DNA from: Qubevirus faecium
Strand: one strand, 5' to 3'
Sequence record: FJ539135.1
DNA: 4,273 nt
Below, piece after piece: positions 2,435 through 4,273 of the stretch. The stretch's first letter is position 1, and every line of letters begins with the position of its first letter. Below the pieces are notes generated by a model. It was not told the DNA's origin. It made no database searches and worked only from the letters and a program-made list of their open reading frames with translations. The position numbers and the translations under genes were made by a program.

Positions 2435-2454
2435 TAGCATGTCAAAGACAGCTA
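2435..2454 (+). promoter_or_regulatory. Translational operator hairpin (coat-protein binding site) enclosing the replicase start codon
   Basis: UAGCAUGUCAAAGACAGCUA folds as an 8-bp stem (2435-2438 with 2451-2454; 2440-2443 with 2447-2450), a single bulged A at 2439 and a 3-nt AAA loop at 2444-2446. This is the same architecture as the Qbeta operator (8-bp stem, bulged A, 3-nt loop). The AUG at 2439-2441 lies in the 5' arm. Confidence 0.8.
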
Positions 2455-4169
2455 GTCGCAGAAGAGAAATTACTCAGCTATTGGGTAAGGTCGACATCAA
2501 CTTCGAAGACGACATCCATATGTCTATTGCCAATGACCTCTGTGAGGCCTACGGCATCCCGATGCTTCGTGACGCTGAGGAGTGCATTAACACCGCATTC
2601 CCAAGCCTTGATCAGAGCGCAGACACGTTTCGTGTCGAGTACTTACGCGCCGAGATCCTATCGAAGTTTGACGGGCATCCTCTTGGTATTAATACCGAAG
2701 AAGCAGCATGGGAGAAATTCCTGGCTGCCGAGGAGGGTTGTAGACGTACGAACGAACGACTGTCACAAGCTAAGTACCATGATAATTCTATTTTATCGTG
2801 GGGTGAGCGCGTAATTCATACCGCTCGCCGAAAAATACTTAAGCTAATTGGCGAGTCCGTGCCGTTCGGGGATGTGGCGTTGCGTTGCCGTTTTTCCGGC
2901 GGTGCAACGACCTCGGTGAACCGTTTACACGGCCATCCGTCGTGGAAGCATGCCTGTCCGCAGGATGTTACCAAACGCGCACTCAAGTATCTGCAAGCCT
3001 TTAAACGGGCATGCGGTGACGTTGTAGATTTACGCGTCAACGAGGTGCGCACTTCAAATAAAGCAGTCACTGTTCCGAAGAATAGTAAGACTGATCGCTG
3101 TATCGCTATCGAACCCGGGTGGAATATGTTTTTTCAACTCGGTGTAGGTGCGGTGCTACGCGATAGGTTGCGCTTATGGAAGATTGATCTTAATGACCAA
3201 TCGACCAATCAGCGTCTCGCGCGGGATGGGTCTCTGCTAAATCATTTAGCTACCATAGACTTATCCGCAGCCAGTGATTCGATAAGCTTAAAGCTAGTTG
3301 AATTGCTGCTCCCTCCTGAATGGTACGACCTTTTAACGGATCTCCGATCCGATCAAGGCGTTTTACCTGATGGACGAGTTGTGACCTATGAGAAAATATC
3401 CTCCATGGGAAATGGCTACACTTTCGAGCTTGAGTCGCTTATTTTCGCGGCGCTCGCAAGAAGTGTGTGCGAGTTACTAGAAATCGACCAATCTACTGTT
3501 AGCGTGTACGGGGATGATATAATCATCGACACTCGTGCCGCAGCTCCATTAATGGATGTCTTCGAATACGTTGGGTTTACGCCTAACAAGAAGAAAACGT
3601 TCTGCGATGGACCCTTCCGCGAATCGTGCGGTAAGCACTGGTTCCAAGGGGTAGATGTAACGCCCTTTTACATACGCCGACCAATTCGTTGCCTTGCTGA
3701 TATGATACTCGTTTTGAATAGTATCTACAGATGGGGCACTGTTGATGGCGTGTGGGATCCTAGAGCACTGACCGTATACGAAAAGTATCTCAAATTGCTG
3801 CCAAGAAATTGGCGACGCAACCGGATACCGGACGGCTACGGAGACGGAGCTCTCGTCGGATTGGCTACGACGAACCCGTTCGTTATAGTTAAGAATTATT
3901 CAAGACTATACCCGGTATTAGTTGAAGTCCAGAGGGACGTCAAGCGCAGCGAGGTAGGTAGTTATCTGTACTCCCTACTCCGCAATCGCGAGACACGTTA
4001 CAGTCCTTTCCTGCGTGACGCAGATAGGACTGGTTTTGATGAAGCGCCGCTAGCTACTAGCCTTCGTCGCAAGACAGGTCGGTACAAAGTAGCGTGGATT
4101 CAGGACAGTGCCTTCATCCGGCCCCCGTATTTCATTACGGGCATTCCCGAGGTGAAGCTTGCAAGCTAG
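2439..4169 (+). CDS. rep: RNA-dependent RNA polymerase (replicase beta subunit), 576 aa
   Basis: ORF 2439..4169, stop TAG at 4167-4169. N-terminus MSKTAS as in Qbeta replicase. Conserved blocks include CRFSGGATT, NKAVTVPKNSKTDRCIAIEPGWNMFFQLG, LATIDLSAASDSISL, VTYEKISSMGNGYTFELESLIFA, the catalytic YGDDII at 3507-3524 (GDD at 3510-3518), FRESCGKH, VDVTPFYIR and IPDGYGDGALVG. Confidence 0.95.
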   Translation: MSKTASRRREITQLLGKVDINFEDDIHMSIANDLCEAYGIPMLRDAEECINTAFPSLDQSADTFRVEYLRAEILSKFDGHPLGINTEEAAWEKFLAAEEGCRRTNERLSQAKYHDNSILSWGERVIHTARRKILKLIGESVPFGDVALRCRFSGGATTSVNRLHGHPSWKHACPQDVTKRALKYLQAFKRACGDVVDLRVNEVRTSNKAVTVPKNSKTDRCIAIEPGWNMFFQLGVGAVLRDRLRLWKIDLNDQSTNQRLARDGSLLNHLATIDLSAASDSISLKLVELLLPPEWYDLLTDLRSDQGVLPDGRVVTYEKISSMGNGYTFELESLIFAALARSVCELLEIDQSTVSVYGDDIIIDTRAAAPLMDVFEYVGFTPNKKKTFCDGPFRESCGKHWFQGVDVTPFYIRRPIRCLADMILVLNSIYRWGTVDGVWDPRALTVYEKYLKLLPRNWRRNRIPDGYGDGALVGLATTNPFVIVKNYSRLYPVLVEVQRDVKRSEVGSYLYSLLRNRETRYSPFLRDADRTGFDEAPLATSLRRKTGRYKVAWIQDSAFIRPPYFITGIPEVKLAS

Positions 4170-4189
4170 ACACTAGCTTGTGATGGGAA

Positions 4190-4208
4190 GGGCGGTCTTT
4201 GACCGCCC
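4190..4208 (+). other. 3'-UTR stem-loop 1 (8-bp GC-rich stem, UUU loop)
   Basis: GGGCGGUC (4190-4197) pairs with GACCGCCC (4201-4208) around loop UUU at 4198-4200. Located 21 nt after the replicase stop. Confidence 0.6.
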
Positions 4209-4228
4209 GAGAGGAGAAAGAAAGAAAA
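4209..4228 (+). other. 20-nt uninterrupted polypurine, A-rich linker in the 3' UTR (candidate host-factor binding site)
   Basis: GAGAGGAGAAAGAAAGAAAA is purine-only and sits between the two 3' hairpins. Confidence 0.5.
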
Positions 4229-4239
4229 CTCCCCTCAGT

Positions 4240-4267
4240 GAGGGTGGGCTCTGCTTTGCCCACTCTC
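4240..4267 (+). other. 3'-terminal stem-loop 2 (about 10 bp, 8-nt loop), followed by a single-stranded CUCCCA tail
   Basis: 4240-4249 (GAGGGUGGGC) pairs with 4258-4267 (GCCCACUCUC) with one G-U wobble; loop at 4250-4257. The genome ends ...CUCCUCCCA-3', the characteristic levivirus CCCA terminus. Confidence 0.6.
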
Positions 4268-4273
4268 CTCCCA

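Follow-up and report, generated by a model that had tools for sequence, protein, structure and literature searches.

The longest purine run in the genome of the group IV allolevivirus Qubevirus faecium FJ539135.1 most likely (probability about 0.9) makes up the 5′ arm and the 12-nt loop of hairpin V, as judged from predicted folds and from covariation among related phages. The window analyzed here is the whole record of 4273 nt, which represents a complete plus-strand genome of the SP/FI type. At the genome level, it is 95% identical to strain BR1 (FJ539134), 91% to SP and 77%–83% to NL95, HB-P22, HB-P24 and FI. Open reading frames for the maturation protein (52–1404), the coat protein and its read-through product (1424–2419) and the replicase (2439–4169) are followed by a 3′ UTR of 104 nt (4170–4273), which is 100% identical to that of BR1 and 94% to that of SP. 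The elements of the 3′ domain described below all lie on the plus strand.

In the predicted structures, backed by the alignment, hairpin V is the middle one of three hairpins, U2, V and U1, inside a domain closed by the helix ld IX. This plan has been described for the Leviviricetes, the 3′ domain of which is closed by ld IX and contains hairpins U1, U2 and V (Beekwilder et al. 1995, via Rumnieks and Tars 2012, PMC3561173). According to the latter paper, a hairpin V with a large adenine-rich loop is present in MS2, Qbeta, SP and AP205, and the 3′ domain of SP comprises just three hairpins, to which Qbeta adds one extra short helix. The element of FJ539135.1 occupies the same site, between U2 and U1 and within ld IX, and shares the large A-rich loop. 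It is the hairpin V already described for SP and not a new kind of element. Among the versions compared, that of group IV is the most extreme, with a pure purine loop containing 10 adenines out of 12 and a purine-only 5′ arm.

Composition and conservation of the purine tract

The 20-nt tract at 4209–4228, GAGAGGAGAAAGAAAGAAAA, is composed of purines only, as the first-pass annotation had pointed out, and lies between C4208 and C4229. No other purine or pyrimidine run in the 4273-nt genome is as long, and the runner-up, at 499–514, has 16 nt. The number of purine runs of at least 20 nt to be expected in a genome is about 0.002, whether derived from the base composition or from a first-order purine/pyrimidine Markov model. 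Moreover, a purine or pyrimidine run of 20 nt was reached in only 10 of 5000 mononucleotide shuffles. A purine run of this length is not a chance feature. The segment that forms the loop, 4217–4228, is also the most A-rich 12-mer in the genome (10/12 A). An equally A-rich 12-nt window was present in 107 of 2000 shuffles; therefore, the significant features are the purine run and its conservation, and not A-richness alone.

The label "ARN-like" attached to the tract by the first-pass annotation holds only in part. One frame contains (ARN)4, at 4212–4223, but the first two of these triplets lie within the stem of hairpin V. Inside the loop, the best ARN run is (ARN)3 at 4219–4227. The loop has at most two consecutive triplets of the strict A-A-N type in any frame, because a G recurs every 4 nt (AAAG period). 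Across the genome, 8 ARN runs were observed against 6.5 ± 2.6 in shuffles, indicating no enrichment. A Shine–Dalgarno reading of AGGAG at 4212–4216 was also considered and discarded, given that the downstream AAAGAAAGAAAACUCC contains no AUG, GUG or UUG.

Alignment of six group IV genomes, which are 76%–91% identical (about 23% divergence), revealed an invariant run of 20 nt at 4214–4233, GAGAAAGAAAGAAAACUCCC, in a background where 61% of the columns are invariant. This run is among the eight longest invariant runs of the genome, and is the sole non-coding one of those eight. The adjoining hairpin U2 varies freely, with compensation. The alignment thus points to a constraint on the V loop comparable to that on a proven cis element, such as the partner of the U1 loop. 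Within the V loop, a single difference was seen, in the SP reference of 1988 (X07489), which has G at column 4225 (loop AAAGAAAGGAAA); this column is A in the resequenced "SP ancestral" isolate and in all other group IV phages, and the G may be either a sequencing error or a tolerated variant.

A scan of the full genome against Rfam gave no family at E ≤ 1. Further relatives were sought in two ways. Scans of viral_contigs matched only the SP and FI reference genomes. A replicase protein search with contig look-ups yielded the 3′ UTRs of distant alloleviviruses, but no added UTR of group IV; one additional genome, 85% identical, ends 8 nt past the stop codon.

Hairpin V and the 3′-terminal domain

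The first-pass annotation had placed the whole tract between the 3′ hairpins, in effect as a single-stranded spacer. This description suits 4217–4228, which is predicted to be unpaired, whereas 4209–4216 is predicted to be a helix strand. The 5′ arm of hairpin V (GAGAGGAG, 4209–4216) takes up the first 8 nt of the tract and pairs with the 3′ arm (CUCCCCUC, 4229–4236) as GAG.GGAG against CUCC.CUC, with one A4212/C4233 mismatch. The two arms enclose the 12-nt adenine-rich loop AAAGAAAGAAAA (4217–4228), a candidate protein-binding platform. Minimum free energy (MFE) folding of the last 124–129 nt gave the same structure in FJ539135.1, SP, NL95, HB-P24 and HB-P22, and the 3′-end fold of FJ539135.1 has a z-score of –5.5. 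In partition-function calculations with contexts of 124, 400 and 1000 nt, the pair probability of the hairpin V stem is 0.94–0.98, and the loop is predicted to be unpaired with a probability of 0.95–1.00.

Sequence variation within group IV is consistent with this fold. Three of the seven pairs in the hairpin V stem have changed on both sides, and 98% of the alignment cells are paired; controls with the whole structure slid along the alignment gave 44%–52%. The arms are GAGAGGAG/CUCCCCUC in SP and BR1 (GAG/CUC), GGAAGGAG/CUCCCUCC in NL95, HB-P24 and HB-P22 (GGA/UCC), and GAGAGAGAG/CUCCCUCUU in FI, with a further change from G-C to A-U. In the NL95 clade, CU at 4234 and 4235 is replaced by UC, with matching changes at 4211 and 4210. 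A Qbeta-like small hairpin at 4232–4244, CCCUC-AGU-GAGGG, which would leave the tract fully single-stranded, was tried and rejected. It is 12 kcal/mol worse than the MFE fold, has a probability of at most 0.03, and is only 86% paired in the fixed alignment. Furthermore, the homologue of its GAGGG in M11 and MX1 is the base of a 10-bp U1 stem. The seeming covariation of this hairpin in FI is probably a register artefact of low-complexity purine/pyrimidine tracts.

The other two hairpins lie on the two sides of hairpin V. Hairpin U2 (4190–4208, GGGCGGUC-UUU-GACCGCCC) has a pair probability of about 1.0, and compensatory changes are found in 3 of its 8 pairs among group IV phages. The terminal hairpin U1 (4240–4267) has a 10-bp stem with a pair probability of 0.96–1.0 and the loop UCUGCUUU at 4250–4257, which is invariant across all alloleviviruses examined. 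An exact 7-nt complement of this loop, AAAGCAG, is located at 3060–3066 in the replicase gene, about 1190 nt upstream, within a 20-nt run (3057–3076) that is invariant in all six group IV genomes. Loop and complement are expected to correspond, in group IV, to the long-range pseudoknot mentioned in PMC3561173 for Qbeta, where it is essential. The FI record, EF068134, is incomplete, with about 35 nt missing from the 5′ end and 14 nt from the 3′ end, and small indels set its 3′ hairpins apart. For this reason, the covariation of U1 and ld IX does not draw on FI.

Helix ld IX closes the domain by pairing UGGGA (4184–4188) with the terminal UCCCA (4269–4273), which includes the initiation site of minus-strand synthesis. 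It is present in the MFE folds of FJ539135.1, SP, NL95, HB-P24 and HB-P22, and its pair probability is 0.65–0.99 in two sequence contexts and 0.15–0.24 in the third. Its five pairs are all invariant, so that covariation is uninformative, and its assignment is based on fold prediction and on homology with UGGGAGG/CCUCCCA of group III. Release of the last 6 nt is calculated to take 2.0–2.3 kcal/mol in five group IV phages, as against 7.2–8.3 kcal/mol in Qbeta, BZ1, M11 and MX1 of group III. A competing UCCCG at 4145–4149, within an invariant run of 14 nt (4144–4157), can pair with UGGGA 4184–4188 in place of the 3′-terminal UCCCA. The low cost in group IV is accounted for by the mere 5 bp of ld IX and by this competitor, which can take its 5′ strand. 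By prediction, group IV has no stable lock on the 3′ terminus that needs opening, of the type seen in Qbeta. These calculations suggest that the 3′-end lock is far looser in group IV than in group III.

The same plan of the domain recurs in more distant phages. The folds of Qbeta, BZ1, M11 and MX1 follow it, with A-rich V loops AUAAAUUA, CAAUACUUAAA and CAAACUUAAA. The large-loop hairpin of Qbeta, UAAUUGUGA-AUAAAUUA-UCACAAUUA, resembles that of group IV in its position in the domain and in its unpaired A-rich loop, but the two share no alignable sequence similarity. In Qbeta, an A/U loop is carried by a long A-U-rich stem, whereas group IV has an A/G loop on a G-C-rich stem. In addition, Qbeta carries a further small hairpin ahead of U1, and its ld IX is 7 bp long with a predicted opening cost of about 8 kcal/mol; the group IV values are 5 bp and about 2 kcal/mol. 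Beyond these groups, uncultured read-through-encoding alloleviviruses from Logan/JGI (L141–L154), the replicases of which are 46%–58% identical, have kept the plan, in which a GGGAG-type strand that closes the domain is followed by a first hairpin, then by one with a large loop, by a small one with a tetraloop and finally by the terminal hairpin. Their large loops are A-rich in some (CAUAAAUUAAA, GAAAUUUAAAA) and mixed in others, and two lineages have U/C-rich loops, UAUUCCUUUAU (L147) and AUUCCUUUA (L152/Chimba virus). One of these contigs is peculiar in another respect. At about 3540–3560 of L147 (JGI Ga0616298_00517, 4276 nt), ...GUUCCCCUCC passes directly into GGGGUAGGGCCCC, which is typical of a 5′ end and is followed by part of a maturation gene, so that the contig runs through the genome end. 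Either the assembly wrapped around or the contig holds a head-to-tail junction.

The V loop as a candidate Hfq site

The invariant A-rich V loop, predicted to be single-stranded, might serve as a docking platform for a protein, most likely for the distal, A-binding face of the Hfq hexamer. Hfq would then be held at a multi-helix junction about 45–55 nt from the 3′ end, and would help the replicase to reach the 3′-terminal CCA. It might hold the weak ld IX helix in an open state, or connect the 3′ domain with internal replicase sites. Such a role would be, in group IV, the counterpart of the host-factor requirement in the copying of the Qbeta plus strand. The first-pass annotation had put forward the tract as a candidate Hfq site; we consider loop 4217–4228 a plausible candidate for an Hfq ligand site, though not a uniquely favored one, with chances slightly below even; the complete model, from docking through Hfq to replicase access, is put forward as tentatively, at odds that likewise fall a little short of one in two.

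Several observations fit this proposal. Hfq binds adenine-rich RNA with its distal face (PMC4152361). It is needed for Qbeta minus-strand synthesis, and is credited with letting the replicase reach the plus-strand 3′ end of this phage (PMC8956599). The V loop lies at –57 to –46 from the 3′ end in group IV. That of Qbeta lies at –62 to –55, inside the RNase T1 oligonucleotide –63 to –38, the only large one in the Qbeta 3′ region, which we take to be the host-factor/S1-protected fragment of Senear and Steitz 1976. Like the distal-face sites of E. coli mRNAs, such as that in the rpoS leader, the V loop is an A-rich segment of about 12 nt, predicted to be single-stranded. Three A-R-N triplets can be read in it, or four in a frame that reaches into the stem. 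The resemblance has its limits. The distal-face motif of E. coli Hfq has been redefined as (A-A-N)n (PMC3936774), and the mRNA sites are triplet repeats, whereas the V loop has a period of 4 (AAAG) with only two triplets in the A-A-N register. Besides, the E. coli site is part of a 5′ leader near an sRNA target, while the V loop is closed off by a hairpin stem and belongs to the 3′ end of a viral genome. In more distant alloleviviruses, moreover, U/C-rich or mixed loops occur on the homologous hairpin, which speaks against Hfq as the ligand.

The best strict (AAN)4 of the genome is internal, namely AACAAGAAGAAA at 3585–3597 (motif 3585–3596) in the replicase gene. Other group IV genomes have AACAGAAAGAAAAC or a close variant at this site, and SP and FI have the very word AGAAAGAAAAC of the V loop, which most group IV phages repeat in their replicase gene. 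This segment may be a second A-rich protein site, or merely a Lys-rich codon run.

Literature searches for Hfq together with group IV phages, including SP, FI and NL95, returned no report of binding, genetic interaction or dependence, and the main text of a 2026 genome-wide host-factor screen that covered group IV does not mention hfq. Work by Su et al. in 1997 is said to have found that MS2 replicates normally without Hfq. Given that MS2 and AP205 share the A-rich V loop, its conserved role may not be specific to Hfq. Moreover, as ld IX of group IV is predicted to be weak, a "melting" role of Hfq would be less needed than in Qbeta. Group IV might use Hfq differently, as a bridge in which one hexamer holds both the V loop and the internal A-rich site in place of 3′-end melting, or as a clamp, selecting for the open form of a three-way switch, with alternative registers formed by the purine/pyrimidine segments GAGAGGAG, CUCCCCUC, GAGGG and CUCUCCUC. 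Taken jointly, these variants are a long shot, to which we would give roughly one chance in ten.

The help that Hfq, discovered as the Qbeta host factor, gives in replicase initiation is still described only in general terms. Hairpin V would offer a clean substrate of about 28 nt for distal-face binding and for effects on minus-strand initiation. If real, the contrast in the 3′-end lock, weak in group IV and strong in group III, could serve to test the model in which Hfq melts the 3′ end. A modest further gain would follow should the extreme purine loop and the weak ld IX be signs that group IV uses Hfq in another way.

Other possible roles for the V loop

The strongest competitor of the Hfq model, itself rather unlikely, is a role of the V loop in virion assembly, as a contact for the maturation protein or for a coat-protein dimer once the 3′ domain is packaged beside the maturation protein. 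It draws on old evidence, cited in PMC3561173, for a possible maturation-protein site at hairpin V of MS2, and on the A-rich V loop being common to MS2, Qbeta, SP and AP205, phages without a known need for Hfq included (PMC3561173). Furthermore, in the Qbeta virion the junction in the 3′ UTR is bound at several points, with the maturation protein on U1, an exposed coat dimer on U2 and an internal coat dimer on R1 (PMC8880383). The same cryo-EM structure, however, assigns the maturation-protein contact to U1 and not to the large-loop hairpin (PMC8880383). In addition, a 12-nt purine loop is unlike the small operator-like hairpins bound by coat proteins, and the V loops of groups III and IV are wholly different in sequence despite homologous maturation and coat proteins.

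Somewhat less probable still is that the V loop acts as RNA only and without Hfq, either as a flexible or tertiary element of the junction, for example through A-minor contacts with adjacent helices, or as a contact for the replicase (beta subunit, EF-Tu or S1). The invariance of the V loop is as strong as that of the U1 loop, which works through RNA–RNA pairing. The V loop is also situated at a four-way junction beside ld IX, and adenine-rich loops are typical donors of tertiary contacts. In a search for a long-range RNA partner, the best duplex reached –6.1 kcal/mol (with CUCUUUC near 1446), within the range of –4.1 to –7.3 kcal/mol given by loops of shuffled order. The V loop thus has no Watson–Crick partner in the genome above chance, which speaks against an RNA-only role by pairing and hints at a protein ligand or a tertiary contact. 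S1, for its part, prefers pyrimidine-rich RNA, and a purely structural spacer would have no need of 20 invariant nucleotides.

A role on the minus strand appears improbable. Here selection would act on the complement UUUUCUUUCUUUCUCCUCUC, situated 46–65 nt from the 5′ end of the minus strand, which could be a U/C-rich site bound by S1 or by the proximal face of Hfq, or an unstructured aid to product release. A purine run on one strand necessarily gives a pyrimidine run on the other, and distant alloleviviruses have U/C-rich plus-strand loops at the homologous hairpin, so that low complexity of composition, more than adenine as such, may be what counts. However, neither S1 nor host factor is used to copy minus strands (PMC4176380, PMC4200798), and covariation shows that the helix is kept but not on which strand.

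The weakest alternative, which we regard as very improbable, is that GAGGAG(A) 4211–4217 and (U)CUCCUC 4264–4270 form a helix that sequesters the 3′ tail or represents one state of a switch: the best fold containing it, with the CCCUC/GAGGG hairpin and a shortened U1, would leave CCA-3′ free but reaches only –53.8 kcal/mol, 8.3 kcal/mol above the MFE of –62.1 kcal/mol. The complementarity between GAGGAG 4211–4216 and CUCCUC 4265–4270 had been noted in the first-pass annotation and is indeed present, extending through A4217–U4264 to seven contiguous base pairs. The pairing proposed from it finds no support, with an ensemble probability of 0.000–0.032 and no covariation. The folds that contain this helix range from –45.1 to –53.8 kcal/mol (8–17 kcal/mol worse than the MFE), and its formation would disrupt hairpin V, the base of U1 and ld IX, three competing helices of which two are backed by covariation or homology. 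Six of its seven columns never vary, and the change of G to A at 4211 in the NL95 clade unpairs it in three of the six sequences, yet is compensated within the local hairpin V. As any purine tract finds a register against the invariant pyrimidine tail, complementarity to the tail carries little information.

A second pair of purine and pyrimidine runs was observed in the maturation gene. The second-longest purine run, GGAGAAGGGAGAGAAA (16 nt, 499–514), is followed by the pyrimidine run UCUUCUCCU at 525–533. In group IV, little of either run varies (invariant runs 502–515 and 523–537). Together they probably form a conserved local hairpin.
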